From Spirochaetota bacterium (GTDB taxonomy: Bacteria; Spirochaetota; JAGLSM01; JAKPMW01), in NCBI GenBank assembly GCA_029548715.1, contig JAKPMW010000232.1, positions 1-31,507 of the forward strand: 31,507 bases of DNA, read 5' to 3'. The notes beneath the pieces were generated by a model that saw only the letters and a list, made by a program, of their open reading frames with translations, was not told the origin of the DNA and made no database searches. The position numbers were made by a program, and so were the translations under genes. Every line of letters starts with the position of its first letter. Position 1 is the first letter of the stretch. Shown in pieces: positions 1 to 16,846 of this stretch.

Positions 1-2
1 TT

Positions 3-1268
3 TCCGGGGCCGAGTCCGGCCTGATGCTGGCAGATCCCATCAGGTTGCAGTATCAGGCTGAGCGCGGAGATGGCCGGGCCCGGCTGATTCTTGCAATGAA
101 GCAAAAACCGGACATCCTGATCGGAACGGTCCTTGTAGGAAATAACATCGTCAATGTCTCGGCAGCTGTTTTGACAAACCGTCTGCTTGAGCACTGGATG
201 GAACCCTACATGGCCAATGTAGCGGCGACGCTCTCTCTGACGTTGATCATGCTGATCACCTCGGAGATTCTTCCCAAGATGATTTTTCAAAGCAGACCCG
301 AAGAGTTGTCACGCAGGGTGGCCCCCTGGCTTCGCCTTGTGGGCTGGATCCTGCGCCCGGTACTTCTTCTGGTCAATGGGGTCTCGGGTGTTCTTGTTTG
401 GGTGTTTGGAGGGGGAAAACGTGGGCGTGCCCCCCTGACCCGTGAAGATATCACGCTGCTTGCAGATGTGGGGATGGAACAGGGGGCGATCAATGCCCGT
501 TCCTATGCCCTGATTGGATCGGTCCTGGCTTTTACTCGGACTACGGCGAGGGAGATCATGACCCCGCTGGTTGATGTTGTTGCTTTGGGCGAGGATGCGG
601 TCGTCGAGGATGTAGTGCGTCTGATCGAGCGGACCGGATTTTCCCGCATCCCAGTGTACCGCAAGCATGCTCATACCATGACTGGCTATGTTTCAGCCTT
701 TGACCTCAAGCAGAGTCGGCGGACAGTCGGGATCTCGGAGTTTATCCGGCCCGCGGTATTTGTTCCCGAATCAAAGTGCATAGACGGGCTCCTGATCGAG
801 ATGCGACAGAAGCGGCTGCCGATGGTGTTTGTCGTGGATGAATGGGGCGGGACAGCCGGGATCATTACCCATGAAGACATTGCCGAGCATGTTGTCGGGC
901 AGATACTTGACAAGGGCGAGAAGATGGAACTGGAGATGCAGGAGGTCTCTCCGGGGGAATATCTTGCTGATGGCTGGACTGACGTGGACAAGGTCCAGCA
1001 GGTGCTCAGGATTCGGATCGAAAAAAAGGGTTTTGAAACCGTGGGAGGGTTTCTTGAATATCTGATGCAACGTGTTCCCGCGATTGAGGAAAGCGTGGCA
1101 TACGAGGGATACCGATTCCATGTGGAGGAAGCAGACAGTACGCGCGTGATCAGGGTGCGTATCAAGCAGGCAGGTTCGCGCAGGCGGTTGAAGTCTGATC
1201 AGACGCATGCCAAAAAACAGGCGCGAGCGGAACAAAATGGAAAGAAACATGAAACAGAACAGGTCTGA
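3..1268 (+). CDS. Hemolysin-family / CNNM (DUF21 + tandem CBS + CorC_HlyC) membrane protein, 5' truncated by window edge
   Basis: The frame is open upstream of the ORF-track ATG at 24 and reads (F)SGAESGL, the DUF21 N-terminal motif. It has LVGNNIVNV, SEILPK, GFSRIPVY, VVDEWGGTAGIITHED and a C-terminal TVGGF..YEGYRFHVEEAD transporter-associated domain. Confidence 0.9.
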   Translation, partial: SGAESGLMLADPIRLQYQAERGDGRARLILAMKQKPDILIGTVLVGNNIVNVSAAVLTNRLLEHWMEPYMANVAATLSLTLIMLITSEILPKMIFQSRPEELSRRVAPWLRLVGWILRPVLLLVNGVSGVLVWVFGGGKRGRAPLTREDITLLADVGMEQGAINARSYALIGSVLAFTRTTAREIMTPLVDVVALGEDAVVEDVVRLIERTGFSRIPVYRKHAHTMTGYVSAFDLKQSRRTVGISEFIRPAVFVPESKCIDGLLIEMRQKRLPMVFVVDEWGGTAGIITHEDIAEHVVGQILDKGEKMELEMQEVSPGEYLADGWTDVDKVQQVLRIRIEKKGFETVGGFLEYLMQRVPAIEESVAYEGYRFHVEEADSTRVIRVRIKQAGSRRRLKSDQTHAKKQARAEQNGKKHETEQV

Positions 1269-3255
1269 CAGCTCGATTCTTGAGAGTATTACACAAGCAG
1301 CACAAGGATGTTTGCTGGATGATTTGGTGGGCGGGGACAGGGATTGTGCGGATGTTCTTGCAGAACTTGCCCGGCTTGTCCGCGCAGGACAGGTTTGTTT
1401 TTCCGGGAACCGGTTTATGGTTCAGGGAAAAGGCGATCTGAAACTGTTTACGGACAGTTTTGGTGATCTTGCAAGGGTGCTTGAAAAGTATTCATTGCCG
1501 GACGGGTTTCCCGAGGTGGTACTGCAGCAGGCCAGACGCTGCCGGGAAGCCGGCAAGAAAGAAACCGCTCGCAGGAAAAAGCTTGAGGGCTGGATCATCA
1601 CAATCGACTCCGAAACGGCCAAGGACCTTGACGATGCGGTGTCTGTCAGGCAGCTTCGTAACGGCTGGGAGCTTGGTGTGCATATCGCCGATGTCTCGTT
1701 TTATGTCGCCCGGGGGAGTGCACTTGACAGGGAAGCCTTTGCCAGAGGAACCAGCGTGTACCTCAACCGGCATGTTGTGCCGATGTTCCCGCATGAGCTC
1801 AGTGATGATTTGTGCAGTCTCAATACCGATCGGCCAAAGTTGGCCTTGTCGGCTTTTCTGGAGATTGATGCATCCGGGAAGCTGCTCTCCTCACGCTTTG
1901 AAAAGACCCTGATACACGTTTCCCGAAGGTTTTCCTACACCGAAGTTGAAAGCATTCTGCGCGGGAAGAAGGATCCCGATGCGGGAAAACTCCAGACGAT
2001 GGCCAGGGTTGCCGGTCTTTTGCGACGCAAGCGGCACGAGCAGGGGGGGCTTGAGTTTGAGGTGCCCGAGGTACGGATTGCTCTTGATGAAAAGGGAGAC
2101 CCGGTGGGTGTCACCGTTCCGGTGCGAAATGAAGCCGAGATGATTATCGAAGATTTCATGCTTGCTGCCAATGAGCAGGTGGCCAGTTTTCTCTCAAAAA
2201 AGGGAGCTTCAATATTCAGGATTCATGCCAGCCCTGATTCTGAAAAGCTGGCGGAGTTTGTCAAATTTGCCAATGGTGTCGGGCTGGGCTTGCGCATTCC
2301 GCGTGAAAACACACCGCGGGCCATGCAGCACCTGCTTGAAGAAGTGCGGGCGAATCCCCATGCCGGTGTGTTGAGCAGTCTTTTGCTGCGTACGATGCAG
2401 AAGGCCGTCTACAGCACGGACAACCCGGGACATTTTGGGCTTGCGTTTGCCGATTACACACATTTTACTTCGCCGATCCGGCGCTATCCCGATCTGGTGG
2501 TACACCGGCTGCTTTCCTCGGCCATCGAGGGGAAGAAGGCCTATACCGAAAAGGAACTGGAGCGAATCGCTGAACAGGCTACCAAAATGGAGCAAAACGC
2601 GGTTGACGCCGAGCGGGAGTATACCCGGATCAAGGGCGCCCGGTTTCTGGGGAAGAAGACAGGCGAGGTATGCGAGGGCAAGGTAACCTCGGTGACCTCG
2701 TGGGGGATGTTCATCACGCTTCTCCAGTGGGGATTGGACGGATTGCTGCATATTTCCGAGCTTCGCGATGACTACTATCGTCTTGATACCTGGGGACACA
2801 CGCTGGTTGGAGAACGGACCGGGCGCGTCTACAGCATCGGAAGTGTCATCCGGGTACGGATCAAATCAGTCAATGCCGAAAAGGGTTTTGTGGACCTTGT
2901 TCTTGAAGAGAGTGAGTTGAAGGGCGGCAAGAGCAGGTCAGGCGGAGGAAGCGGGAAGCATGGGGCAAGGTCGTCCCGGACTGGTTCCGCAGGGGACAGA
3001 AGAACAGGCGACAAAAATGCCAGGACTTCTGAACAGCGCTCACGGAATGGTGCTGCGGGACCGGCGCGTACAGATGCCGGGCGGAATGCGGGGGCACGAC
3101 AGGGACAGGCGAGGCAGGATCCCGGCAGGATCAGCAAGGCGACGCATCCGGTAAAGACAACTCAGCCAGAAGGGGTCCGGGAACCAGTCATTCAGCCTGT
3201 TGCCGAGCAGGAAAAATCATCCAGAGGAAAGGGATGGCGTTTTTGGAAGAAATAG
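1249..3255 (+). CDS. rnr: Ribonuclease R (RNB family 3'-5' exoribonuclease), apparently lacking CSD1/CSD2; alternative starts 1207 or 1237
   Basis: RNB catalytic motif TIDSETAKDLDDA, plus GVHIADVS, RGTSVY, HFTSPIRRYPDL. C-terminal S1 domain (GKVTSVTSWGMFI...GLLHISEL) and a basic low-complexity tail. Confidence 0.9.
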   Translation: MKQNRSDSSILESITQAAQGCLLDDLVGGDRDCADVLAELARLVRAGQVCFSGNRFMVQGKGDLKLFTDSFGDLARVLEKYSLPDGFPEVVLQQARRCREAGKKETARRKKLEGWIITIDSETAKDLDDAVSVRQLRNGWELGVHIADVSFYVARGSALDREAFARGTSVYLNRHVVPMFPHELSDDLCSLNTDRPKLALSAFLEIDASGKLLSSRFEKTLIHVSRRFSYTEVESILRGKKDPDAGKLQTMARVAGLLRRKRHEQGGLEFEVPEVRIALDEKGDPVGVTVPVRNEAEMIIEDFMLAANEQVASFLSKKGASIFRIHASPDSEKLAEFVKFANGVGLGLRIPRENTPRAMQHLLEEVRANPHAGVLSSLLLRTMQKAVYSTDNPGHFGLAFADYTHFTSPIRRYPDLVVHRLLSSAIEGKKAYTEKELERIAEQATKMEQNAVDAEREYTRIKGARFLGKKTGEVCEGKVTSVTSWGMFITLLQWGLDGLLHISELRDDYYRLDTWGHTLVGERTGRVYSIGSVIRVRIKSVNAEKGFVDLVLEESELKGGKSRSGGGSGKHGARSSRTGSAGDRRTGDKNARTSEQRSRNGAAGPARTDAGRNAGARQGQARQDPGRISKATHPVKTTQPEGVREPVIQPVAEQEKSSRGKGWRFWKK

Positions 3256-3310
3256 CTGATACTTCAGAAAGCTTCAGGACAAAATTCTTTGACAAGTTGG
3301 AGGTAGTTTT

Positions 3311-3652
3311 ATGAGGGTACTGATTGGTGTGCTGCTTGTGCTGTCTCTGGTTGCCTGCGGTAAAAAAGGCGAGCAAGTGCAGGGTCATGAAAAAGGTGCT
3401 GTTACCAATTCCGCTGTGACGCTCAAGCAGATTGACGCGGCCGAACTGGCAAAAAATGACGGGAAAAATGGTCGCCCGGCCTGGGTGGCGTATAAGGGAA
3501 AGGTCTATGATGTCACGGCTGTCCCTGCCTGGAAGACCGGTACGCACAAGGGTCATGGGGCCGGGCAGGATATCACTGCAGCCCTTGCCTCCGCCCCGCA
3601 TGGGGACAAGGTGTTTGCCAAGCTGACGCCTGTTGGTGAACTCAAGAAATAG
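3311..3652 (+). CDS. Cytochrome b5-like heme/steroid-binding domain lipoprotein
   Basis: SD GGAGG upstream; hydrophobic signal ending in lipobox LVA-C. Cyt-b5 pattern ELAKNDG..WVAYKGKVYDVT..W..G.H..AGQDIT..APHG with two His candidates for heme ligation. Confidence 0.82.
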   Translation: MRVLIGVLLVLSLVACGKKGEQVQGHEKGAVTNSAVTLKQIDAAELAKNDGKNGRPAWVAYKGKVYDVTAVPAWKTGTHKGHGAGQDITAALASAPHGDKVFAKLTPVGELKK

Positions 3653-3668
3653 CCGACCGGCTTGCAGC

Positions 3669-3695
3669 AAAACCGCCCGGATGGGGCGGTTTTTT
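3669..3695 (+). terminator. Intrinsic (Rho-independent) terminator after the cyt b5-like gene
   Basis: AAAACCGCCC-GGATG-GGGCGGTTTT inverted repeat running into a T6 tract, 16 nt after the stop codon. Confidence 0.85.
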
Positions 3696-3753
3696 GTTCT
3701 TCCGGTGCAGTATATTGATATGAGGAAGGGTCACTGGCAAAGATGGAGGAGCT

Positions 3754-4149
3754 ATGAAATTCAGGCGCAGGCTGCAGCAGAAGGTGGGTATCGACATGAC
3801 GCCCATGATCGACTCAGTGTTTCTGCTGCTCATCTTCTTTATGATAACATCTTCCATTATCAAGGATCAGGGGATCCAGGTAACCCTGCCGCACGCCAAG
3901 AGCTCCGAGTCGCAACCGGATCGTGACCTTGTTATCAGCATCAGTCGGGAGGGTGTCATTTATCTGAATGAGGTGCGGGTTGCCAAGAAGGATCTCTACC
4001 AGAAGCTGAGAAAATTGTACAAGGAGGTCAAACGTGACTTCCTTATCATACGTGCGGATGAAGTCATCGAGTACGGTGTCCTTGTCGAAGTAATGGATAT
4101 TGCCCGCCTTGCGGGTATCTATAATGTTTCACTGTCGACCAAACGATAG
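3754..4149 (+). CDS. exbD: Biopolymer transport protein ExbD/TolR
   Basis: SD GGAGGAG. IDMTPMIDSVFLLLIFFMIT transmembrane helix with the conserved Asp; VTLP.A and IRADE..YG..VEVMD..R.AG motifs. Confidence 0.93.
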   Translation: MKFRRRLQQKVGIDMTPMIDSVFLLLIFFMITSSIIKDQGIQVTLPHAKSSESQPDRDLVISISREGVIYLNEVRVAKKDLYQKLRKLYKEVKRDFLIIRADEVIEYGVLVEVMDIARLAGIYNVSLSTKR

Positions 4150-4179
4150 TCAACAGATGGGACAGGGAGGAGAGGCGCT

Positions 4180-5028
4180 ATGGAGGGAATCCGGGATGGC
4201 ATGCGATTTGATCGCATGGTTGTCGTCTCGATTGCTGCGCACTGTCTCCTTCTCGTTCTTGTATCCCTTTTCTGGGGGGGGACTGAGATTCCTCCGGTAC
4301 GGACAGTCCAGCTTGTCATCGAGTCACGGACTGTTTCACGTGAGGTGATTGCCGAAGTCAGGCGGGAGAGTGCCCCTGCCAGGGCCCGGCAGGATTCACA
4401 GGAACGAGGATCAGCGGACGATTCGCTCGAAAACCTTCTTGAACGGTCCTCGTTTCCACACAAGCCCGCACCCGAACGGGAACTGCCCAACCGGAGGCGG
4501 GAGGATGATTTTGACTATGGCTCTCTCAGGCGCGATCACGAATCTCCTGCCGGAAGGCTGGAGCGAAACCCTGATTCAAAGGACATGCAGGCCCATCGTC
4601 CCTCTCTGACGGATCGGGATACCAGGGACAGGGCAGGTGCGCGCGATACTTTTGGCCGGGATGATCTGACCAGACAGGGCGGAAAGAGCAGCACCCCCGG
4701 AATTAGCGGTTCCGATTTTGCCCGGCAGGGTGACCGGGGCAGTGGTGTGACCGGGCTTGTCAATCTGAGGGGGCGAAACTGTGTCTATCGCCCTATGATT
4801 ACGCTGCCTGAGCGCTACAGCCGGCAGGGTTTGTCATATACCGTCCAGGTCGAGATAAGCGTGACCGAGGAGGGGATTGTCAGTCGGGCGGCTGTTACCG
4901 AGCCAAGTGGAAATCCGGAGCTTGACCTTTTGCTCGAGCAACGGGCACGGATGTTCAGATTTGAGGCAGCCTCAGCGGGAACCGGGACCCAGGCCGGGAT
5001 GATTGCGTTTTCCATTCAACCGAGGTAA
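4180..5028 (+). CDS. TonB/TolA-like energy transducer (N-terminal TM anchor, charged linker, TonB_C-like domain)
   Basis: TM segment with S-x3-H (SIAAH). C-terminal LPERYSRQGLSYTVQVEISVTEEGIV....EPSGNPELD resembles TonB_C. The linker is R/D/E/G-rich rather than Pro-rich. Directly follows exbD. Confidence 0.78.
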   Translation: MEGIRDGMRFDRMVVVSIAAHCLLLVLVSLFWGGTEIPPVRTVQLVIESRTVSREVIAEVRRESAPARARQDSQERGSADDSLENLLERSSFPHKPAPERELPNRRREDDFDYGSLRRDHESPAGRLERNPDSKDMQAHRPSLTDRDTRDRAGARDTFGRDDLTRQGGKSSTPGISGSDFARQGDRGSGVTGLVNLRGRNCVYRPMITLPERYSRQGLSYTVQVEISVTEEGIVSRAAVTEPSGNPELDLLLEQRARMFRFEAASAGTGTQAGMIAFSIQPR

Positions 5029-5033
5029 TCCCT

Positions 5034-8000
5034 GTGAATCAGCGATCAGGTGCATTCATTCTCCCGGCCATGGCAGGCAGCGTTCTTGTTTTTCTTTTTG
5101 CGCTTGCTGTCCTGATCAATCATGCGGTTGGGACCCTGCTTGTTTCGCTGGAGGATGATCTTGTAGCAGGGATAGAACGCGAAAACGGAATCCGCATCGC
5201 ATACGATTCGATCTCGATCGCCTCCCTTGATACCCTGGTGATGAATGGCCTGAAGATCCGCCATGCGGACACCAACCGTCAGGCTATCCTGGCAAGCCTC
5301 GACAGGGCCGAGGTGCAGGTCCGGCTTATCCCTCCGATTTTTGGTGGCAAGGACGTGATGGAATCCATTTCGTCGCTGGTGTTTGACAATCCCTCGATCA
5401 ACCTGTACAGCGATGGCTCGCTTTTTGACAGTTTTCGCGAGGCGGCAGTTCGACGGGAAACAAACACCTCCGCGAAACCAGGCAAAAAATTTGATGTCGA
5501 TGTTGTCATCCGAAACGGCATGGTGCGGGTGTATGGGTCTGATTCAATCCAGGCTGTTCCACCGGCTGCACCCCTTGCTGAAGTCAGCCTTCACAATCTT
5601 GATCTTGAATTGAGGGAAAACAAGGGAAGTTTTAGTATCAAGAGCGAACTGGCCATGCTCCCCTCGCAGGATCTTGTTGCGGGAAAGCTTGAAGTCGCTG
5701 GCATTCTTGACCTTGATACCGGTTCTGTTGATGCTCTTGTGACGGCAAGCGGATCCAGGGTCGCGGGATTTGTCCTGCCCGAGTTGCGTTTTTTCGTCTC
5801 AAGGGAGGCTGGCCAGGTAACGGTTGATTCATCCACCTTTGGTCAGCCGGTCTCAATTGACGGGCGCTGGAGGGAGGGCGCCGAGGGGAGCTTTGTATTG
5901 ACCCTCGACAGAAATCTTCGCTCTTTCGACAGTTTTATGACCCGAACAGCTTCCAGCGTATTGGGACGGATGTTTTTTTCGAAAGATGATCAGTACAGCC
6001 CAACCGGAAAGGTCGTTGTTGATATAGGAAGTGAAGGAGTCCGGATGTCGGGCGATCTTGCCATTGAGGACCGGAATGGCCGTCCCGTGTTCCGGTTTGC
6101 AGCGGGCGGAAACAGCCAGATTTTGACGGTTGACCGTTTTGAACTTGCAAGGGATGAGCATCTCATCAGCCTCTCCGGCTACTGGGACTGGAAGGGGTTT
6201 CCCCATTTTGCTGCCAGAGTGAGAAAGTTTGAACTGGAAGGGGCGACAATCGATGGTAATTGTACTGTCAGGCCTGCCGCGGACGGGATGGTTGCCCTTG
6301 ACCTGGAGGGTCTGGCGCTCAATGGCCGGCATATTGGATCTGTTTCAGCCCTGATGAACCCGGGAGCTTCGAAGATCTCTTTTGACGGTTTCTCAGGCAC
6401 CCTCAGGGGGCATGCTGCGTTGGGTGCTGAATCTGCCGCTGTACAGCTTGATTTGTCCGGCTTTCAGCTTGGAGATCTGGTCGAAGCCCTGACAGGAGCC
6501 GGATTCGTATCTGGCTGGAGCATGTCGGGGCCGCTTGTTGTCAGCAGAGGAACCAACGGGATATCGCTTCGGGGCGAAACGACGGTAGTCACTGCCGGAC
6601 AGGGAAATATTGTTTCTGCCTTCAAGTACAATGGAGAGGAATTGCGTATCGACCGCTTTGAGAGCGATTGGCTGTCACTGACAGGAGCTGTGCGGCGGGA
6701 GTATGATGGCGCGAGTGGAAAGTTCCTGATTGACTACAACGGCAGGCGCTGGCCTCTGACCACCCAGATCAAGCAGACCGGGGACATTGCGCGGGTAGGT
6801 GTCGAAATAACCGGTATGCTTGCTGGTCAGGCGGACATTTCAGGGAATGAGGTGCGGGCATCGCTGTCTCTCAGCGGGATAGATCTTGCCCCCTTTGGAG
6901 TCAACGGTATTCTCAAGGGAGAGGGGACTCTGGTGCGGCGTGGGGGCGCTGTACTGACTGGTGGCACATTTTCGCTCAGGATGCAAGACCCCGGGATTCC
7001 GTCGGCGGCATTGGTGTTTCATGGAGCAGACCGGAGATTTGATGTCACCAGTATTGTCCTCGAGCGGGAGGGGCATGCATTCTCGGGAGGCGGCACGGTC
7101 TGGTTTGATGAACAGGACTCGGTTCATTGCTCGCTGGCATTTGCCAATGGATTGGCTCTTCAGGCGAACACGATTCCGGGAGGGGTTGTTGTCCAGTCAC
7201 AGTTTGACAACCTTGATCTGGCCGGCGTTTTTCCCGGAATCATGGCAGGAGTTCTTCAGGGACGTGCCGAAGTCCGGCTTGTCGGGGAGGTACCTGCTGC
7301 ATCGTGGAATATCCGCCTTTCAAAAGGCACATTGCAGGGCCTGCAGGTATCGATTGTATCGGAAGCCAAAAGCCGGCCGGGCGGGTTTCAGCTTGAAAAG
7401 ACCAGTCTGGTTTTTGGGGATGCCGAGCTGTCGGTCCGTAACGGATATCTTGTCCAGACAGCGGGCGGTCTTGATTTTATGTGCAACGGTACCTTCGTCT
7501 GGGGAGGCGCCCCTTTCAGGGTCGATGGACGGATTCTTGCGCAGGGCGGGACCTCAAGCGGACAGGCCGAGGCCGTTGTGGCTCTTTCAGGTGTGCGCTT
7601 CGGAAACAGCAGGGTGACGGATTTTTCGAGTGCCATCATGAACAGAGGTGGGCGCCTTGATATTCGCAAGACTGGTCCTGCCGGACTGGATGGATGGTAT
7701 GACCTGGCCGCCAACCGGATGAATCTGAGATATTCCGATTCAAGCGGCATGTCCTTGCTTGTCCAGGGAAAAAACGGGAAGCAGCTTGACCTGACGGCAC
7801 ACGCTGTTGGACTTCCGTTGTCTGTCTTGCAGAATTATCCTGTCGTGTTCCGTTCCGCTGAGGGGCGTGCGAATCTGAGCATCAGTCTCAGGGGGCCGGC
7901 TGAGCGTCCCGAGGTTTCGGGATTGGCACGGATCGAAAATGCCAGGATGGATCTGAGCATGCTCCGAAGTCCTCTGACCAGACTTGCCCTGCAGGCAAGT

Positions 8001-9173
8001 GTGACGCAGGGCACCATTACGCTGGGATACCTCACGGCGACCAACGGGAGTGGCAGCCTGTCTGTCCGGGGCAAGGCCTTTATCAGGAATGGTGAGGTAG
8101 ACGACATTGATGTCAGGCTGCAGACCGACAGAAAGCACGGACTTGACCTTGATCTGGTGGATCCGGAGATTCGTTCATCAGGTGGTGCCCTGGCAGATCT
8201 CTTCATCACCGGAAACATCAATGCGCCACATGTCCAGGGACGTGTGGCCCTGCATGACAACGAATTCTTTTACATGGAAGACTCGGCCATTCCGAGCAAG
8301 GAAAACTGGATCAAGCGGATCCGCTGGAATCTCGAAGTGGCCGTGCTGGATGGTGTGAGCTATGTCAACCAGCTTGTCACCGCGATGATTCAGCCTGGCT
8401 CGTCACTCCATTTGAAGAACAGCATTATTGACAAGGATTTTCTGGTCAGCGGGAGGGTGACCGCATCCCGCGGAACATTTGACTACATCAACCACGAATT
8501 CAGGATCGAACAGCCGACATATATTGAATTCAGGCGGACTTCATTCGGACTTGATCCATGGCTTGCATTTCGTGGGCGCCTGCGGCTCAAGGATGAAGAG
8601 CTGGAAAACGTGGATATCTATCTTACATTTGCAGGCCCTCTCTCGACAGGGATCAATCCGGTCTTCAGTGCTGAGCCCGAGCGGTCCCAGGATGAGATTC
8701 GAGTCCTGCTCGGGATCGAGCAGCCCGATACCACATCAGCCGATGGTCGCCGGAAAAACGAAAACATCATGCTGCGCTCGACAGAGCTGATCTCGCTGCT
8801 CGGGTTGAAGCCGCTTACAAAGGAAATCCGGGAGTGGTTCGGGCTTGATATTTTCACCATACGTACACCTATTGTGCGGAATATCCTCGAGCGGGAGAGT
8901 CTGGATGCACTTGACCCCAAACGGCAGCTCTCGATTTTCAGGGACACCCAGTTCTCACTGGGAAAGTATTTGACCAGTTTCATGTTTGTTGAATATACTT
9001 TGGTACTGAAAGACGATCTGCAAAGCTTTGGGGATGTGTTGCCCACGCATCAGGTGGGTCTCGAGTTGAGTTTCGACTTTCTCAATCTGGGGTATCTCAT
9101 CAAGCCTACAGAAAAAAGCGGGTTCGGTGAGTACGAGCAAAGCATCGAGCTTCGTTTTCGACAGCGGTTCTAG
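5034..9173 (+). CDS. tamB: Translocation and assembly module TamB-like protein (AsmA-like, C-terminal DUF490), 1379 aa
   Basis: GTG start, N-terminal membrane anchor, long Gly/Val-rich beta-taco-like body. C-terminal L.I.G....P.V.G.V, FEQP..I.F, DP.L, F.S.P...Q.EI..LLG and LGKYLT patterns. Immediately upstream of bamA, as in spirochaetes. Confidence 0.8.
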   Translation: MNQRSGAFILPAMAGSVLVFLFALAVLINHAVGTLLVSLEDDLVAGIERENGIRIAYDSISIASLDTLVMNGLKIRHADTNRQAILASLDRAEVQVRLIPPIFGGKDVMESISSLVFDNPSINLYSDGSLFDSFREAAVRRETNTSAKPGKKFDVDVVIRNGMVRVYGSDSIQAVPPAAPLAEVSLHNLDLELRENKGSFSIKSELAMLPSQDLVAGKLEVAGILDLDTGSVDALVTASGSRVAGFVLPELRFFVSREAGQVTVDSSTFGQPVSIDGRWREGAEGSFVLTLDRNLRSFDSFMTRTASSVLGRMFFSKDDQYSPTGKVVVDIGSEGVRMSGDLAIEDRNGRPVFRFAAGGNSQILTVDRFELARDEHLISLSGYWDWKGFPHFAARVRKFELEGATIDGNCTVRPAADGMVALDLEGLALNGRHIGSVSALMNPGASKISFDGFSGTLRGHAALGAESAAVQLDLSGFQLGDLVEALTGAGFVSGWSMSGPLVVSRGTNGISLRGETTVVTAGQGNIVSAFKYNGEELRIDRFESDWLSLTGAVRREYDGASGKFLIDYNGRRWPLTTQIKQTGDIARVGVEITGMLAGQADISGNEVRASLSLSGIDLAPFGVNGILKGEGTLVRRGGAVLTGGTFSLRMQDPGIPSAALVFHGADRRFDVTSIVLEREGHAFSGGGTVWFDEQDSVHCSLAFANGLALQANTIPGGVVVQSQFDNLDLAGVFPGIMAGVLQGRAEVRLVGEVPAASWNIRLSKGTLQGLQVSIVSEAKSRPGGFQLEKTSLVFGDAELSVRNGYLVQTAGGLDFMCNGTFVWGGAPFRVDGRILAQGGTSSGQAEAVVALSGVRFGNSRVTDFSSAIMNRGGRLDIRKTGPAGLDGWYDLAANRMNLRYSDSSGMSLLVQGKNGKQLDLTAHAVGLPLSVLQNYPVVFRSAEGRANLSISLRGPAERPEVSGLARIENARMDLSMLRSPLTRLALQASVTQGTITLGYLTATNGSGSLSVRGKAFIRNGEVDDIDVRLQTDRKHGLDLDLVDPEIRSSGGALADLFITGNINAPHVQGRVALHDNEFFYMEDSAIPSKENWIKRIRWNLEVAVLDGVSYVNQLVTAMIQPGSSLHLKNSIIDKDFLVSGRVTASRGTFDYINHEFRIEQPTYIEFRRTSFGLDPWLAFRGRLRLKDEELENVDIYLTFAGPLSTGINPVFSAEPERSQDEIRVLLGIEQPDTTSADGRRKNENIMLRSTELISLLGLKPLTKEIREWFGLDIFTIRTPIVRNILERESLDALDPKRQLSIFRDTQFSLGKYLTSFMFVEYTLVLKDDLQSFGDVLPTHQVGLELSFDFLNLGYLIKPTEKSGFGEYEQSIELRFRQRF

Positions 9174-9220
9174 GGATACCGCGAATGGGTATGTCGGGGT
9201 AACGATTTGGAGCGTATTCA

Positions 9221-11638
9221 ATGAACTGTCTGGCCCGAATCCGGCTGGTCCTGGTTGTCTGCATTCTTTCGGTATCTTTTCCCGCATGGTCTGCCGGATA
9301 CGAGGATTATACGATCATCAAGATCGACCTCAAAGGCAATGTCAACACGGATGCCGCCCTTATCAGGGCCCTTCTTTCCAGCAAGGTGAATGCAAAGTTT
9401 TCCTACCGGAATGTGACACGGGATGTCAAGGACCTTTATTATCTCGGGTATTTTTCGGATATCCAGGTCGATGCCCTGATCGTCGCTGGCGGATTGGTCC
9501 TGACCTATATTTTTGAAGAGTATGACAAGATCGAGGAGATCCTCTTCAAGGGAAATGATGAGCTTTCCGAGGGCGACCTCAAGGAGGCCATGACCCTGAG
9601 AAAGGACTCGGTGTTCAGCCAGATTCAGCTTCAAAAAAACATCGAGACGATTCTTGAAGCCTACCGCAAGGAAGGCTACAGGAATGCGAAAGTGACCCCG
9701 AATGTGCGGGTCGACAAGAACCTGCGCAAGGTTTACATACGGCTGGATATTGACGAAGGCGACAAGATAGTTATCCAGAAGATCCGGATCATCGGGGCAT
9801 CACAGCTTCCTGAAAGTGCTGTCCGGGATGCGATCGAGGATACCCACGAATCGGGATTTTTCCGGGGTGGTATCTACGACGAAAAGACCTTCGAAAAGGA
9901 CAAGTCCAGAATAGTCGAATACTATCGCAACCGCGGTTTTATCAAGATGCAGATAAAAAAAGTGGATTTTCGTGTTGAGCCTGTCAAGCCCGGTGCGAAG
10001 CAGCAGGGCATTTTTATCGATGTGCATGTTGATGAGGGCAAGCGGTATCGCATGGGCCGCTATGTGTTTGAAGGCAATGACATCTTTTCGGGCGATGATA
10101 TATTGACGAAATACTTCAGGCTCAAATCGGGAGACTACTTCGACAACAGCCAGTACGAAAAGGATCAGATGGGCCTCTGGCAGGCCTATCGCGAGCGGGG
10201 ATATATTTTTACCGAGATTACGCCGATCAGGCAGATTGATGAACAGGCGCAGACTGTCAATCTGACGTACAAGATCCGGGAGAAGGAGATTGCCCACGTC
10301 CGGCATATCAAGATAAAGGGAAACACGCGCAGCGAGAATTACGTGGTTGAGCGCGAGATGCGGATCAAGGAAGGCGAGATTTTCAACAGCTCGGCCATTC
10401 GACGTTCGCAGGAGCGGTTGTTCAACCTGCGCTACTTCAAGGATGTCAATATCGAGATTGAGCCGGTTGAGGGCAATGAAGGGCTGATGGACCTTGTCTT
10501 TTCTGTCAAGGAGGACCGGACAGGCCTGTTTACCCTGGGGGCCGGCTATGGCTCGGTGACCGGGTTTACGTTTTACGAGCAGATTTCTGAAAACAATCTT
10601 TTTGGGATGGGTTTTACGGTCTCCCAGCGGCTTGAGCTGGGTGAAAAGCGCAAGAGCATATCGCTTGGTCTCGACACACCCTACACATTTACATACGAGC
10701 CGGTTTCGCTCGGTTTTACGATTTCCTACAGTGCAACCCAGATCGAAAACATCAATACCAACTACTTGAACATGGCTCTGTCCGAAGTGAAGCGGGGCAG
10801 TGATGACGAATATCATTTCATGCGCAAGGCCTTTGAAATCCAGCTTCGGGCCGGGCGCAGTTTTTCCGAGTGGTGGAGAGGCTATTCATCCTATACCTTT
10901 GCCTGGATTGACAGCTACGATGCCAATTTTGTCCCCCTGAGTGCGACGGAGGCCACCAACAAGTCGTCCACGACCCAGGAGTATATTCGCAGGCTGCGCG
11001 ATGCCCTCGACAAGGGGTTCAGTACAAAAAGCAGTCTCAGGCTGGGACTCCTGTATGATACGCGGGATTACGTGGGAGGACCCTCACGCGGTATCTACGC
11101 CAGCCAGTTCCTGACATATACCGGTGGAATTCTGGGCGGCGACAGCCAGTCGATCATGTCTGAGAGCAACTTCTCATTTTTCATCCCGCTGTTCTGGGAT
11201 CTGGTCTTTGCGGTTGACACAAAATTCGAATATATCCTTGACCAGCTGGATGGTGCGTCCAATATCTATCCGGGCGACGAGCTTCAGTTTGACGGGATGA
11301 CCGAATTGCGGGGCTGGCGCAGCTATAATCAGGTCGGTCGCGGGAAAATATCAACGATGACCGAGATACGGTATCCGATTGACAGGCGCATGCTCTGGGG
11401 CGTGTTTTTCTATGACGCGGGAAGATTGTGGGAGGACTACACCAAGGTCTCCTTTGATCTCAAGGAGTTCAAGCACAGCTTCGGGTTTGGTTTCCGCCTG
11501 CAGATTGCCGTCCTCCCGATCAGGCTGTATTTTGCCAAAAAATTCGAGTATGATGATTCAGGCAGGGTAAACTGGCTTGGTGGTTCCGGTGCTTTCGATG
11601 GGTGGGAGACGGTTTTCTCTGTTGCCGGTGTGTTCTGA
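9221..11638 (+). CDS. bamA: Outer membrane protein assembly factor BamA (Omp85), five POTRA domains + barrel
   Basis: Signal peptide; five recognisable POTRA repeats (e.g. IKIKGNTRSENYVVERE, RSQERLFNLRYF); barrel start TGLFTLGAGYG; ENNLFGMG; loop-6 ELRGW; FGFGFR; C-terminal Phe. Confidence 0.96.
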   Translation: MNCLARIRLVLVVCILSVSFPAWSAGYEDYTIIKIDLKGNVNTDAALIRALLSSKVNAKFSYRNVTRDVKDLYYLGYFSDIQVDALIVAGGLVLTYIFEEYDKIEEILFKGNDELSEGDLKEAMTLRKDSVFSQIQLQKNIETILEAYRKEGYRNAKVTPNVRVDKNLRKVYIRLDIDEGDKIVIQKIRIIGASQLPESAVRDAIEDTHESGFFRGGIYDEKTFEKDKSRIVEYYRNRGFIKMQIKKVDFRVEPVKPGAKQQGIFIDVHVDEGKRYRMGRYVFEGNDIFSGDDILTKYFRLKSGDYFDNSQYEKDQMGLWQAYRERGYIFTEITPIRQIDEQAQTVNLTYKIREKEIAHVRHIKIKGNTRSENYVVEREMRIKEGEIFNSSAIRRSQERLFNLRYFKDVNIEIEPVEGNEGLMDLVFSVKEDRTGLFTLGAGYGSVTGFTFYEQISENNLFGMGFTVSQRLELGEKRKSISLGLDTPYTFTYEPVSLGFTISYSATQIENINTNYLNMALSEVKRGSDDEYHFMRKAFEIQLRAGRSFSEWWRGYSSYTFAWIDSYDANFVPLSATEATNKSSTTQEYIRRLRDALDKGFSTKSSLRLGLLYDTRDYVGGPSRGIYASQFLTYTGGILGGDSQSIMSESNFSFFIPLFWDLVFAVDTKFEYILDQLDGASNIYPGDELQFDGMTELRGWRSYNQVGRGKISTMTEIRYPIDRRMLWGVFFYDAGRLWEDYTKVSFDLKEFKHSFGFGFRLQIAVLPIRLYFAKKFEYDDSGRVNWLGGSGAFDGWETVFSVAGVF

Positions 11639-11661
11639 TCTGATATGGTTTGGAGGGATCA

Positions 11662-12201
11662 ATGAAGCGAATTGTAATTTTGGCGGTACTGGCGATATCC
11701 ATGCTGCCCGTTGTTGCGCAGGCAGCATCACTCAAGGACATCATCAAGATTGGCGTTGTGGATATGGGCAAGCTCTTTACCGAGTATGCGTCCAAGAGCG
11801 AAGCATCAAAGAACGTTCGCGAAAAAAAGGCCCGTTTCGCAAAGGAAATCAGGGATGAGGCAGCCGTTATCCGCAAGATGGAAAGCGATCTCAAGGATCA
11901 GATGGCTGGCGCTTCGGACAGTGAGCGGCGGCGCAGAAGTGCAGAGATAGAATTCAAGAAGGACGAGCTTGCCAGTCTTGTTGCCCGGAGGAATGCCGAG
12001 CTTGAAAAGGAAGAGCGTGATATAACCCAGCCGATCCTTGAAGAGATTTATGAGGCAGTGCGCTTTGTGGCCAACAAGCAGGGTGTCAAGATTGTTCTCG
12101 ACAGCAGGTCATACATTGCCTACCACGATATCGAGCTTGACCTGACCGAACAGGTTCTCCTGAGGTTGCGGCTCATACTTTCACAGAAAAATCGGTTCTA
12201 A
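11662..12201 (+). CDS. skp: OmpH/Skp periplasmic chaperone
   Basis: GGAGG then ATG at 11662; signal peptide; [11 protein letters not shown] motif; long coiled coil; C-terminal DLTEQVL. Follows bamA. Confidence 0.9.
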
Positions 12202-12205
12202 AGGC

Positions 12206-13285
12206 ATGCTGCGCGCCTGCTCGCTGACACTGGTTGAGTTGGCAGAGAGACTCCGGGGAGTGCTCCGATCCGAAGGGGATCGGGGTATTGTGATTAATGG
12301 GGTTACTCCCCTCGATGCAGCAGCGCCAGGATCGATTGTCTATGTCACCAACAACGCGGGCTGCCGCATTGCCGAGTCCGGCCGGTGCGCGGCCGTGCTG
12401 GCAAACTCCGTGCAGGCGGGTCAGGTGACAAAGCCGGTCATCATCGTGGATGATCCCCGGGCGGCCTGGATGGCCTGTCTCCGGATATTTACTCCGGTTC
12501 TCACCGAGTACCGTGGGATTTCTCCTGATGCGAGTGTGGATCCTTCAGCGGTAATACATCCGCGGGCTGTCATCATGCAGCGGGCTGTCATTATGCCCGG
12601 TGCGCGGATCGGCGCGGGGAGCGTGGTCTGGCCAGGTGTGTTTATTGGCGAACAGGCTCAGATTGGCGAGGACTGCGTTCTTCACCCGAATGCAGTGGTG
12701 CGCGAGGGCTGCATTCTCGGAAACAGGGTCATTGTTCATGCGGGTGCCGTTATTGGAGCGGATGGGTTTGGCTACAGGGCAGATGCGGATGGGCGGCATC
12801 TCAAGATTCCCCAGATCGGAAATGTGATTATCGAAGATGATGTCGAGATCGGTGCCAATGCGACCATCGACAGATCCACGTGCGGATCAACCGTGATTGG
12901 CGAGGGTAGCAAGATCGACAACCTTGTGCAGATTGCCCATAATGTAAACATTGGAAAGCGTAATATATTTGCAGCCCAGGCCGGTATTGCCGGGAGTTCT
13001 GTCACAGGAGAGGGCTGTATTTTTGCGGGGCAGGCTGGTGTGGCGGATCACTGCCGGATTGGCGACAGGGCGGTCATCGGGCCACAGGCCGGTGTGCAAC
13101 TCAGAAGGGTTAAGGCCGACACGGTCTATTTTGGTACTCCCGCAATCGAGATGGAAAAAATGCAAAAAATCCTTCCGTTGTTTCATCGTTTGCCTGAACT
13201 GCTGGGAAAACAAAACAGCGAGGCGGCCAGGGAGCAGCCCACGGGCGAGGGAACGGAAGCTGCTGGACGATCACCGGATTTCTGA
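12206..13285 (+). CDS. lpxD: UDP-3-O-(3-hydroxyacyl)glucosamine N-acyltransferase LpxD
   Basis: Hexapeptide repeats; [42 protein letters not shown]. Confidence 0.96.
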
Positions 13286-13347
13286 TGATACTTGTTTTCA
13301 TGCCTTGCTGAGGCAAATTGACAACGAGGAAATAACAGGAGGAGAAG

Positions 13348-13800
13348 ATGTCAAAGACACTTGATGTAACAGAGATCATGAAACTGCTTCCACACCGTTA
13401 TCCGTTTTTGATGGTAGACAGGATCATCGATTTTGATGATGAAACCATTACCGGGATCAAAAATGTAACCATCAACGAACCCTTTTTTCAGGGGCATTTC
13501 CCGGGACACCCGATCATGCCCGGAGTGTTGCTGGTCGAGGGGCTTGCGCAGTGCGCTGGCTGCCTGATTTTCCAGAAGATTGACAATCCTGCAGCACATG
13601 TTGTGTACTTCATGGGATTGAACAACGTCAAATTCCGGAAACCGGTGCTTCCCGGGGATACGGTAACCTACAAGGTCAAGATCATCAGTTTTAACGGAAC
13701 ACGAGCCAAGATGCAGGGTGAGGTTTCTGTCGATGGCAAGGTTGCGAGCGAGGCCGAAATGACCGCAATGCTGATGCCACGCAAGACTGATGAAGGCTGA
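13348..13800 (+). CDS. fabZ: 3-hydroxyacyl-ACP dehydratase FabZ
   Basis: LPHRYPFLMVD, KNVTINEPFFQGHFPGHPIMPGVLLVEGLAQ, KFRKPVLPGD. Confidence 0.97.
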   Translation: MSKTLDVTEIMKLLPHRYPFLMVDRIIDFDDETITGIKNVTINEPFFQGHFPGHPIMPGVLLVEGLAQCAGCLIFQKIDNPAAHVVYFMGLNNVKFRKPVLPGDTVTYKVKIISFNGTRAKMQGEVSVDGKVASEAEMTAMLMPRKTDEG

Positions 13801-13818
13801 CGAACAGGAACGACAGGC

Positions 13819-14616
13819 ATGGTCCATCACACGGCTCTTGTTGACAGTGCTGCCCGGATAGGGGAGGGGGTCAGGATTGGACCCTATGCCGTTGTTGAAG
13901 GGAGTGTCAGGATCGGGCCAGGTTGTACGATCATGGCGCATGCCTGGATTGGCGGTAATACCAGCCTTGGGGAGGGTTGTGTTGTTCATCCCCATGCTGT
14001 GCTTGGGGATGTGCCCCAGGATTTTTCATATGATCCCGCCAGGGTGTGCTCATCACTCGAAATAGGAAATTTTTGTGTTTTTCGCGAGGGCGTGACCGTG
14101 CATCTCAGCTCAAGGGATGGTGGCCGGACCGTCATCGGAAATCATGTATACATGATGGCCTGCAGTCATGTCGGGCATGATGGGGTCATCGGCGATCATG
14201 TCACCATGGCCAATTCGGCCCTTTTGGCCGGGCATGTGGTTGTCGGGGAAAGAGCCTTCATTTCGGGTAATGTCTCAGTGCACCAGCATGTCCACATCGG
14301 GAAGCTTGCCATGATTGGTGCTTCAACCTTTGTCAGCCAGGATATACCGCCTTTCTGTACTGCACAGGGAGTTCCCGGCCGGGTGGTCTGCCTCAATACG
14401 GTTGGACTCAAACGAAACGGGTATGACCAGCAGAGGAGGACCGCGCTCAAGAAGGTTTTCCGTCTTTTGTATCGCCAGGGACTCTCTCTTGAAGGGGCGC
14501 TTGCGCAGCTTGATCAGCTTGAGGATCAGGATGCGGACTGCGTGTCCGGCTTTATCCGGGCTACAAAGCGCGGGATTGCGTCTTCACGCGGTCATGGTCG
14601 CGCCGATGAGTCGTAA
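13819..14616 (+). CDS. lpxA: Acyl-ACP--UDP-N-acetylglucosamine acyltransferase LpxA
   Basis: Hexapeptide repeats, G..PQD, HVGHD (catalytic His), LAGHV, VHQ, QDIPPF, LN.VGLKRNG. Follows fabZ. Confidence 0.93.
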   Translation: MVHHTALVDSAARIGEGVRIGPYAVVEGSVRIGPGCTIMAHAWIGGNTSLGEGCVVHPHAVLGDVPQDFSYDPARVCSSLEIGNFCVFREGVTVHLSSRDGGRTVIGNHVYMMACSHVGHDGVIGDHVTMANSALLAGHVVVGERAFISGNVSVHQHVHIGKLAMIGASTFVSQDIPPFCTAQGVPGRVVCLNTVGLKRNGYDQQRRTALKKVFRLLYRQGLSLEGALAQLDQLEDQDADCVSGFIRATKRGIASSRGHGRADES

Positions 14617-15058
14617 TGAAATTCCTCAGGACGGGGTCTTGCTCGGGATCGACTTTGGCCTGGCCCGGATTGGTGTTGCCCGTTCGGATTGTTCAAGGCT
14701 GCTGGCGTCTCCGTGTGCCATCATCTGCAGGAAGGTGAAACCGGCTGCTGATTCAGCCGGTAGTATCATGAGGCAGATGGCAGCATGCGGTGCGGTTGCT
14801 GTTGTCATGGGCTGGCCTGACGAGGAAGATGAACGGACCCAGGATATCAGGGCGGCTATTACCGGGTGCATTGATCAGCTTGAAAAGCACGCAGTACCGG
14901 TGGTGTGTGTCTCTGAATCGTTTTCAAGCAGGGAGGCACTGGATCTCCTCCATGCGTCCGGCAAGAAAAAAAAGCCCGGGCAATATCTGGATGACTGGGC
15001 TGCCGCGGTTATTCTTCAACGCTATCTTGACGCACCGGATGAGTACACACGAAGGTGA
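14606..15058 (+). CDS. ruvX: YqgF/RuvX family RNase H-fold nuclease (pre-16S rRNA nuclease / Holliday junction resolvase-like)
   Basis: LLGIDFGLARIGVA.SD, VVMGWP, VSESFSS, LDDWAAAVILQRYLD. Likely start is ATG 14606 (or 14594), overlapping the lpxA stop; the ORF-track start at 14315 lies inside lpxA. Confidence 0.9.
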   Translation: MSRNEIPQDGVLLGIDFGLARIGVARSDCSRLLASPCAIICRKVKPAADSAGSIMRQMAACGAVAVVMGWPDEEDERTQDIRAAITGCIDQLEKHAVPVVCVSESFSSREALDLLHASGKKKKPGQYLDDWAAAVILQRYLDAPDEYTRR

Positions 15059-15096
15059 TATACTGAAGAGCGGCATACTGTGGGCAGAGAGGTTCC

Positions 15097-15993
15097 ATGA
15101 AGCAACACACCCTGCAATCTCAGGTTGCGATCGAGGGCAAAGGGCTGCACAGCGGCCAGGATGTCTGCATTCTGCTTGAGCCGGCAGATCCAGGGACAGG
15201 GATTGTTCTGTTTCGTGAAGATCTTGCGCCCGGCATGCCGATTCCGGCTTCCTGGCGGTTTGTTGTGGATACGGGTCATAATGTGACACTGGGGCGCGAG
15301 AGTGTGTCGATCCAGACAGTGGAGCATCTTCTTTCAGCCCTGTCTGCAGCCGGAGTCGATAATTGCCTGATACGTGTCAACGGGCCGGAGATCCCGTTGT
15401 GTGATGGCGGGGCGAAGTACTTTCTTGAGACTCTCAGCCGGACCGGGCTTTCAGGGCAGGAGGCTCCACGGGAGTATTGCCAGATCAGGATGCCAGTCTG
15501 GGTTGAGGATGGCGATCGGTATCTGCTGGCCCTGCCAGCACATGATTTGCGGATCTCCTGTTCGATACATTTTCGCCACAAAGCCATCCGGTATCAGGCC
15601 TGCCATATCCGGATGGATGCAAAAACCTATCTGCATGAGATTGCTCCTGCCCGGACCTTTGGTTTTACAGGTGATATTGAGGTGTTGCGCAGGCGCGGGC
15701 TTGCCCAGGGTGGTGACTATGATACGGTGCTTGTGTATGATGAAAACGGGCCAATCAGTCCGGATATTCACTTCGAGGATGAGTGTGTCAGGCACAAGGT
15801 TTTGGACATTATGGGAGACCTGGCTCTTCTTGGACATCCTTTGCGGGCGCATGTGATCGGTCACAAGACAGGACACGCCCTTGATGTTGAATTTGTCCGG
15901 AGGCTGGCCGCTGAAATGATAACCGTGTCCGACACTGACACGCTTGAGCGCGACCGCGAATTTGCCAGTTTTTGCGAAAGGATGAATCTGTGA
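15097..15993 (+). CDS. lpxC: UDP-3-O-acyl-N-acetylglucosamine deacetylase LpxC
   Basis: KQHTL...GKGLHSG, TVEHLLSAL, EIPLCDG, IAPARTFGF, RHKVLDIMGDL, GH. Zinc and catalytic residues are present. Confidence 0.96.
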   Translation: MKQHTLQSQVAIEGKGLHSGQDVCILLEPADPGTGIVLFREDLAPGMPIPASWRFVVDTGHNVTLGRESVSIQTVEHLLSALSAAGVDNCLIRVNGPEIPLCDGGAKYFLETLSRTGLSGQEAPREYCQIRMPVWVEDGDRYLLALPAHDLRISCSIHFRHKAIRYQACHIRMDAKTYLHEIAPARTFGFTGDIEVLRRRGLAQGGDYDTVLVYDENGPISPDIHFEDECVRHKVLDIMGDLALLGHPLRAHVIGHKTGHALDVEFVRRLAAEMITVSDTDTLERDREFASFCERMNL

Positions 15994-16448
15994 AGGCGTG
16001 GTTTCTGGCCGTGTGTGCAACAGGTGTCTGCGCAGTCTGCCTGGTCTGTGCCTCCCGGCGTGACGAAAAATTTGAAGTCCGGGTAGATGCGGCGAAACTG
16101 ACGGTTGAACTGGCGGCTGATCCGGACAGCCGGGCCCGTGGGTTGATGCATCGCACAGATCTTGAGCAGGATGCGGGGATGCTTTTTGTGTTTGAGTATT
16201 CGGCTGAATGGGGATTCTGGATGAAAAACACCTTCATTCCGCTTTCGATAGCTTTTATACGGGAAGACAGGACGATCCTCAACATCGAGGATATGTATCC
16301 TCATGACACGAGTCTCGTGATGCCCAAGGGACCGGTTCGGTATGCACTCGAGGTCAACAAAGGCTGGTTCGCGGCCCACTCTATCCGGGCCGGGGCACGG
16401 GTGATGTTTTCCAGCAATCTCAGCCGTGCCATCAGGATCAGCCCATGA
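15990..16448 (+). CDS. DUF192 family exported protein (possible lipoprotein)
   Basis: GTG overlapping the lpxC stop (GTGA). VELA....RARGLMHR, GMLFVF, FWMKNTFIPLSIAFI, YALEVNKG; hydrophobic Cys-containing N-terminus. Confidence 0.88.
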   Translation: MKAWFLAVCATGVCAVCLVCASRRDEKFEVRVDAAKLTVELAADPDSRARGLMHRTDLEQDAGMLFVFEYSAEWGFWMKNTFIPLSIAFIREDRTILNIEDMYPHDTSLVMPKGPVRYALEVNKGWFAAHSIRAGARVMFSSNLSRAIRISP

Positions 16449-16846
16449 AAGCGTGCCTGCTGCTGCTCGTTTTCATGGCTTCGTGCGGGACTGTCCGTGA
16501 GTTTCACTTGCAACGAGGCGACGAAAAGGCCCCGATTACGGTTTCCCTCGGGCCTGCGGTTGTTTCGGGGGGACTTTTTTTTGTGTATCTGCCGGATGTC
16601 GAGGCCCATACGGTTTCCGTCGCAGGTTCATTCAACGGCTGGAGACCGGCCGAATTTTTTTTGACGAATACTTCGGGATCGCCTCTGTGGAGCGGGTTTC
16701 TCCCCCTGACACATCGGGAGAGTGTGCAATTTTGCTACTTCATAAACGGCCGCTTGAGGAGGGCCGATCCGGTGCTTGGATCGACAACGGATGAAGACGG
16801 GCAGGTCTATTCCACCATTGTTGTGAAGCCAGTTACCAACGGATAA
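16445..16846 (+). CDS. Glycogen-binding (CBM48 / AMPK1_CBM-like) domain lipoprotein
   Basis: ATGA overlap with the upstream gene; signal with lipobox MAS-C. A.TVSVAGSFNGW and Y.YFING....DP match the CBM48/E-set pattern. Confidence 0.72.
   Translation: MKACLLLLVFMASCGTVREFHLQRGDEKAPITVSLGPAVVSGGLFFVYLPDVEAHTVSVAGSFNGWRPAEFFLTNTSGSPLWSGFLPLTHRESVQFCYFINGRLRRADPVLGSTTDEDGQVYSTIVVKPVTNG

Follow-up and report, generated by a model that had tools for sequence, protein, structure and literature searches.

A stretch of 31,507 nucleotides (nt) from the genome bin of a Spirochaetota bacterium, here called the window, carries an exbD gene (3754..4149, plus strand) and a tonB-like gene (4180..5028, plus strand) directly ahead of tamB, bamA and skp. 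Our analysis suggests that the two genes probably belong to a Ton/Tol-type motor with a split channel gene, that this motor is shared, and that it has a second, receptor-independent job for which TamB/BamA is the leading candidate client. The window is contig C11 of the bin (81% complete, 468 contigs) and starts at base 1 of that contig, inside a CNNM gene; the organism is found in sludge, bioreactor and wastewater metagenomes. Among its relatives, G001 belongs to the same genus and G002 and G003 (92–94% complete) belong to the same order (G-, f- and C-numbers denote genomes, families and contigs of our bin, respectively).

In the mechanism we propose, exbD and the tonB-like gene would supply two of the three parts of a proton-driven motor, the third being a TolQ-like channel. 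Judging from the families of these proteins, a TolQ pentamer and an ExbD dimer would turn proton flow into mechanical work on the S-x3-H helix of the TonB-like arm, whose long disordered linker would span the periplasm and whose TonB-type end domain would grip a partner at the outer membrane; the stoichiometry, the transmission of force and any TamB or BamA contact are what we infer. Such a motor would serve TonB-dependent receptors where it is the sole stator and would, in addition, carry out an envelope job independent of receptors.

The ExbD–TonB-like pair and its channel gene

The ExbD/TolR-type stator subunit matched PF02472 at 112 bits (cut-off 25.4) and has a single N-terminal transmembrane helix with an Asp (D20) that was invariant in an eight-sequence alignment. 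The TonB-like protein matched TIGR01352 at 31.3 bits (cut-off 27.1) and PF03544 at 19.8 bits, under the cut-off of 24.6. Its N-terminal transmembrane helix bears S17-x3-H21, with H21 nearly invariant in the family alignment. The linker that follows (residues 35–186; ~150 residues, predicted to be disordered) consists of 17% Arg, 11% Asp, 10.5% Ser and 7% Pro and is also rich in Glu, unlike the Pro-rich, rigid linker of the TonB family. An AlphaFold2 model of the C-terminal domain (residues 190–282) had a predicted local distance difference test (pLDDT) score of 82–93, and its 13 best Foldseek matches in the PDB were TonB C-terminal domains or the TonB homologue FusB (template-modelling scores 0.31–0.75). 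TolA domain III first appeared at rank 44, with 37 aligned columns, and the domain does not qualify as a TolA domain III. These profile matches and the predicted fold indicate that the arm is a member of the TonB family. Its own family is small and fast-evolving: a search of 1.8 billion representatives gave 11 clusters at E ≤ 1e-10. The conserved transmembrane Asp, the S-x3-H motif, the TonB-like end and the charged linker that is not Pro-rich, all noted in the initial annotation of this DNA, were borne out by these comparisons. A third TonB C-terminal-domain protein, of ~326 residues, is encoded on C51 (L126:1459-2439, minus strand; TIGR01352 31.9 bits); lacking a His in its N-terminal helix, it does not have S-x3-H, and it is conserved in 4/4 genomes of the order.

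That annotation had also described the pair as having no ExbB, TolQ or MotA. This is true of the window, in which no MotA/ExbB-family gene was found, but a TolQ-like gene lies just past the contig edge. Our bin holds three MotA/ExbB-family genes: one in a flagellar motA-motB pair, one in a classical exbB-exbD-exbD-tonB set on C26, and a TolQ-like gene (NCBIfam tolQ 126.5 bits, cut-off 221, versus 81 for exbB) on the 3.9-kb contig C336, where it is followed by a CNNM gene ending 79 nt from the contig end (gene order unknown-TolQ-CNNM1). Reverse-complemented, C336 ends in the same 19 nt with which the window begins, and a reading frame runs unbroken across the join through the second CNNM gene. 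The 5' part of that gene continues on C336, and the joined sequence agrees with the G001 orthologue. Because the two contigs join by this overlap with a continuous frame, the TolQ-like gene can be placed on the strand of exbD, its stop 5,078 nt ahead of the exbD start, with two CNNM genes, RNase R, a cytochrome-b5-like lipoprotein gene and a terminator in between. The apparent lack of ExbB is therefore explained by a contig edge that cuts the locus short of the TolQ-like gene.

The three closest genomes place the channel gene upstream as well. A single contig of G001 reads unknown-tolQ-cnnm-cnnm-rnr-cytb5-exbD-tonB-like-tamB-bamA-skp-lpxD-fabZ-lpxA; G003 has the same gene order with 4 kb extra before exbD; and G002 reads tolQ-cnnm-cnnm-rnr-exbD-tamB-bamA-skp-lpxD, without the tonB-like gene. 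The order tolQ ... exbD-(tonB-like)-tamB-bamA was thus found in 3/3 of these genomes, and this arrangement indicates that the TolQ-like gene is the cognate channel of this ExbD, parted from it by an old insertion. The earlier suggestion that an ExbB is borrowed from elsewhere in the genome gives way to a cognate gene 5.1 kb upstream in the same orientation. TolQ and ExbD genes are also far apart in G032, G015, G117, G008 and G047, at spacings from 12 kb to separate contigs. Since the two are often far apart in the phylum, an exbD without an adjacent exbB is widespread in Spirochaetota and no peculiarity of this locus. For annotation more broadly, an apparent "exbD without exbB" can reflect both a contig edge and an operon split long ago. 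The insertion itself recurs: two CNNM/CorC paralogues in tandem, sharing 27% identity and in most cases joined by an RNase R-family gene, separate tolQ from exbD in four families or more (window 1-3255 with C336; loci L019, L020, L120, L133, L139, L141 and L189). On C26, a reverse-transcriptase gene (RVT_1; L008:7770-8960, minus strand) lies a few kb from the exbB-exbD-exbD-tonB set.

The profile scores also bear on whether the motor is a Tol-Pal equivalent, that is, a TolQ-TolR-TolA-like system that constricts and tethers the outer membrane and keeps its lipids in balance, with TolB and Pal replaced by proteins not recognised as such. The hidden Markov model scores lean this way, as the best NCBIfam match of ExbD is tolR (75.5 bits, cut-off 127.3, versus 61 for ExbD) and that of the channel protein is tolQ. 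The motor furthermore persists without receptors (see below), suggesting a housekeeping envelope role like that of Tol-Pal, and a link to outer-membrane lipid balance would be shared with Tol-Pal, which has been implicated in it (PMC11889096). However, the tolQ and tolR scores all fall under their equivalog cut-offs, the end domain is of TonB type rather than TolA domain III, and TolQ-ExbD-TonB-like triplets in other families precede glycogen genes, not tolB-pal. No canonical TolB was found above cut-off in our bin (Pal was not searched for), and no TolB, Pal or TonB-dependent receptor was found among the window open reading frames scanned. We consider a Tol-Pal equivalent highly improbable. 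The nearest TolB candidate in the bin is a 374-residue protein on C181 (L032:5717-6841, minus strand) with weak TolB_N-like and DUF3280 matches; it has no beta-propeller repeats and adjoins histidine biosynthesis genes.

Gene order ahead of tamB and bamA in Spirochaetota

Downstream of the tonB-like gene, the plus strand encodes an AsmA-like TamB (5034..9173; PF04357/DUF490, 56.6 bits), a BamA with five POTRA domains and an Omp85 domain (9221..11638; TIGR03303, 469.7 bits versus a cut-off of 297) and a Skp/OmpH chaperone (11650..12201; PF03938, 91 bits). A TamB with a C-terminal DUF490 domain and an adjoining POTRA-bearing Omp85 protein together identify this set as a TAM/BAM hybrid. We surveyed the DNA upstream of bamA in 64 Spirochaetota genomes from 40 families and found exbD directly upstream of (tonB-like)/(tamB)/bamA in 20 genomes and 13 families. 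In f7, exbD directly precedes a 1,960-residue TamB that does not adjoin bamA; with tamB and/or bamA counted as the neighbour, the totals become 21/64 genomes and 14/40 families. The arrangements included tolQ-exbD-bamA, tolQ-exbD-tonB-like-tamB-bamA, tolQ-cnnm-cnnm-(rnr)-exbD-(tonB-like)-bamA and exbD-tamB-bamA. TonB-like genes with S-x3-H lie between exbD and tamB or bamA in five families (f1, f2, f4, f23 and f27), and the genes in the exbD-tamB gap of G005 and G118 are likewise TonB-like with S-x3-H. The synteny of exbD, tonB, tamB and bamA, which the initial annotation had singled out for checking in relatives, is conserved in the genus and the order and recurs widely in the phylum. This recurrence indicates that the position of exbD ahead of tamB-bamA-skp is ancient in Spirochaetota. 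An ExbD tree sets the exbB-exbD-exbD type apart from the single-ExbD type; since its deep nodes are unresolved, a single origin of the bamA-adjacent copies is not decidable from the tree.

Many lineages, among them G002, G023, G024, G014 and G011, have no tonB-like gene at the locus. Several observations weigh against reading a functional connection into this gene order. The families f9 and f40 keep the arrangement CNNM-CNNM-bamA although exbD has left it, and TolQ-ExbD-TonB-like is encoded far from tamB/bamA in G010, G018, G021, G033 and G037. In other families, tolQ-exbD-tonB-like sets located elsewhere adjoin unrelated genes downstream. The block has also preserved RNase R and two CNNM genes, all unrelated, so conserved adjacency is no proof of shared function. 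Among 80 ExbD loci from other phyla, in a scan that did not take in the closest relatives, none had TamB or BamA within 10 kb, and TolQ was adjacent. The family counts include related genomes that are not independent and so overstate the number of events, and the absence of receptors discussed below was judged on the Plug domain alone. The statements that this motor is the only stator in a genome, or that TolB is missing, are provisional given the completeness of our bin (81%) and of G002 and G003.

Receptors and candidate clients of the motor

Whether the motor serves TamB/BamA exclusively, as had first been proposed, can be judged from the gene inventories of G002 and G003. Each has one ExbD, this TolQ and two Plug-domain receptors; one further MotA/ExbB-family gene in each is presumably flagellar MotA. 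In G002, a receptor-TonB operon lies elsewhere and its TonB bears S-x3-H, while in G003, which also has receptors, the tonB-like protein is the sole TonB-family member with S-x3-H. As the sole non-flagellar stator in genomes with receptors, the motor must serve receptors there, and these inventories indicate that it is shared, not dedicated.

A dedicated energiser, in which the TolQ/ExbD/TonB-like motor would power TamB lipid flow or TamB-BamA insertion through direct binding by the end domain or ExbD, nevertheless has several points in its favour. These include the adjacency in 14 families, the close packing of the genes (5 nt between the tonB-like gene and tamB here, and exbD overlapping tamB by 4 nt in G023), the exbD-tamB pair kept without bamA in f7, and retention of the motor in 12/19 genomes without a Plug match. 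Besides the bamA-adjacent copy, G024 and G006 have a second single-ExbD locus, and G005 and G118 have second and third sets. In E. coli, intermembrane transfer of bulk phospholipids was reported decades ago to depend on the proton-motive force (PMF; reviewed in PMC10345924). Set against this are the stator inventories of G002 and G003, the lack of the tonB-like gene at the locus in the five genomes named above, and the distance between motor genes and tamB/bamA in many families. TamB itself was rejected as a direct, TonB-like client of the stator, as its N-terminal helix has no conserved S-x3-H. A dedicated energiser therefore appears unlikely. A complex prediction for the TonB-like end domain (residues 185–282) with BamA POTRA1-5 (residues 25–440), using alignments for both, gave a score of 0.00, which counts neither way.

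At the other extreme, the pair and the upstream TolQ may form an ordinary Ton system that energises only TonB-dependent receptors, with the adjacency to tamB-bamA an inherited order without functional meaning. As in TonB-ExbB-ExbD of E. coli, ExbD carries the transmembrane Asp, the arm combines S-x3-H with a TonB-fold C-terminal domain, a MotA/ExbB-family channel gene is encoded in the same genome, and our bin has TonB-dependent receptors. The inventories of G002 and G003 and the unrelated CNNM and RNase R genes conserved in the block are also consistent with this explanation. Unlike in E. coli, however, four or five unrelated genes separate the channel gene from exbD, the linker is rich in Arg, Asp, Ser and Glu rather than Pro, and exbD and the tonB-like gene are chained to tamB-bamA-skp-lpx. 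A classical exbB-exbD-exbD-tonB set is already encoded separately in our bin and in G001, and relatives without a Plug-domain receptor keep the motor.

This last point was examined across the phylum. No Plug match was found in 19 of 151 genomes, 12 of which keep a single ExbD. Among these 12, a TonB-like gene with S-x3-H lies beside ExbD in four, and a TolQ gene of non-flagellar size was present in all seven that were checked (7/7). exbD directly precedes tamB in two families of Plug-less genomes. In G023 (99% complete), which has no Plug match and no TonB_C match, exbD is intact and shares 4 nt with the beginning of tamB, and the TolQ gene, frameshifted or mis-assembled, is located elsewhere. 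The seven Plug-less genomes without ExbD all fall in f45 and f16, which we take to be Borrelia- and Treponema-like families. That relatives without a receptor keep the motor suggests a second envelope job independent of receptors, a role that these genome contents make plausible, and we regard an exclusively receptor-serving Ton system as distinctly unlikely. LpxC is absent from five of the 12 Plug-less ExbD genomes, so retention of the motor does not track lipopolysaccharide, and a link between the motor and lipid A was rejected on these five genomes.

TamB-BamA complexes have been established in Borrelia (BB0794-BB0795-BB0796; PMC5582053, PMC11361582, PMC13382580). Our locus resembles the Borrelia machinery in its tamB-bamA-skp order and in having BamA, not TamA, adjoin TamB; it differs in its motor genes immediately upstream and its lipid A genes downstream. 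The families f45 and f16 likewise have tamB-bamA, but ExbD is found nowhere in their genomes. A precedent for a TolQ/TolR-type stator that powers something other than TonB-dependent receptors is the AglQRS gliding motor of Myxococcus. Unlike in Myxococcus, no gliding apparatus is present here.

How transport to the outer membrane is powered, in the absence of ATP there, is a long-standing question, and AsmA-like bridges such as TamB have no known energy input. Our preferred reading remains a shared motor with a second, receptor-independent job, and its recurrent, ancient place ahead of tamB-bamA-skp makes TamB/BamA, on gene order, the leading candidate for that job. A more specific proposal is that an ancestral TolQ/ExbD(/TonB-like) motor feeds PMF to a TamB-BamA bridge and so drives lipid or protein delivery to the outer membrane. 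This would account for the lasting association of exbD with tamB/bamA in 14 families and for the survival of the motor without a TonB-dependent receptor and, in some genomes, without a lipid A pathway; we offer it tentatively and consider it unlikely. TamB has been implicated in anterograde lipid flow (PMC11889096). A full-text literature search of incomplete coverage returned no paper linking ExbD or TolQ to TamB or BamA. The coupling of PMF to TamB/BamA suggested in the initial annotation thus retains its synteny and a plausible receptor-independent role, and loses its dedicated character and borrowed ExbB. The conserved linkage of proton-motor genes with tamB/bamA, and the survival of the motor in genomes free of receptors, provide a concrete and testable candidate for outer-membrane energy supply. 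The order tolQ-exbD-bamA is present in f10, presumably a Leptospiraceae-like family, and genetic tools are established for Leptospiraceae.

Surrounding genes and transcriptional layout

Upstream of exbD, the plus strand encodes a CNNM/CorC-family protein (1..1268; PF01595, PF00571, PF03471), the second of a tandem pair, with its 5' end cut by the contig edge. An RNase R/II-family exoribonuclease follows (1207..3255; PF00773, 343 bits; TIGR02063, 563 bits, under the cut-off of 598) and is found at the equivalent position in G001, G002, G003, G026, G039 and G061. The next gene encodes a small cytochrome-b5-like protein (3311..3652; PF00173, 37.9 bits) with a lipoprotein-type signal (…LVACG…). 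This gene for a heme/steroid-binding-domain lipoprotein, with a terminator 3' of it, occurs at this position otherwise only in G001.

Between these upstream genes and exbD lies an intrinsic-terminator-like hairpin (3669..3693, plus strand) of 10 pairs, six of them G-C, followed by a T run. It is the sole strong site of this kind within 3200-16500, consistent with the initial annotation, which had placed exbD and the TonB-like gene after a clear terminator and had them run with short gaps into tamB, bamA, skp, lpxD, fabZ and lpxA. The gaps from exbD to lpxA are 30, 5, 47, 11, 4, 62 and 18 nt. Shine-Dalgarno-like GGAGG/GAGG sequences precede the tonB-like and tamB starts; tamB begins with GTG 5 nt past the tonB-like stop, with GAGG 10 nt upstream. 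A consensus scan, which is uninformative for a spirochaete, found no sigma-70-like promoter in 3694-3753. Metatranscriptome contigs from four RNA runs covered the tonB-like gene and tamB in short stretches of low depth, for which DNA carry-over is possible; no junction was bridged by at least 31 nt, and one piece spans 4894-5046.

Downstream of skp, the same-strand block continues with lpxD, fabZ, lpxA, ruvX and lpxC (12206..15993, plus strand). Within 14612-16846, ruvX is flanked by lpxA and lpxC, and next come a DUF192 gene and a gene for a CBM48-like lipoprotein.

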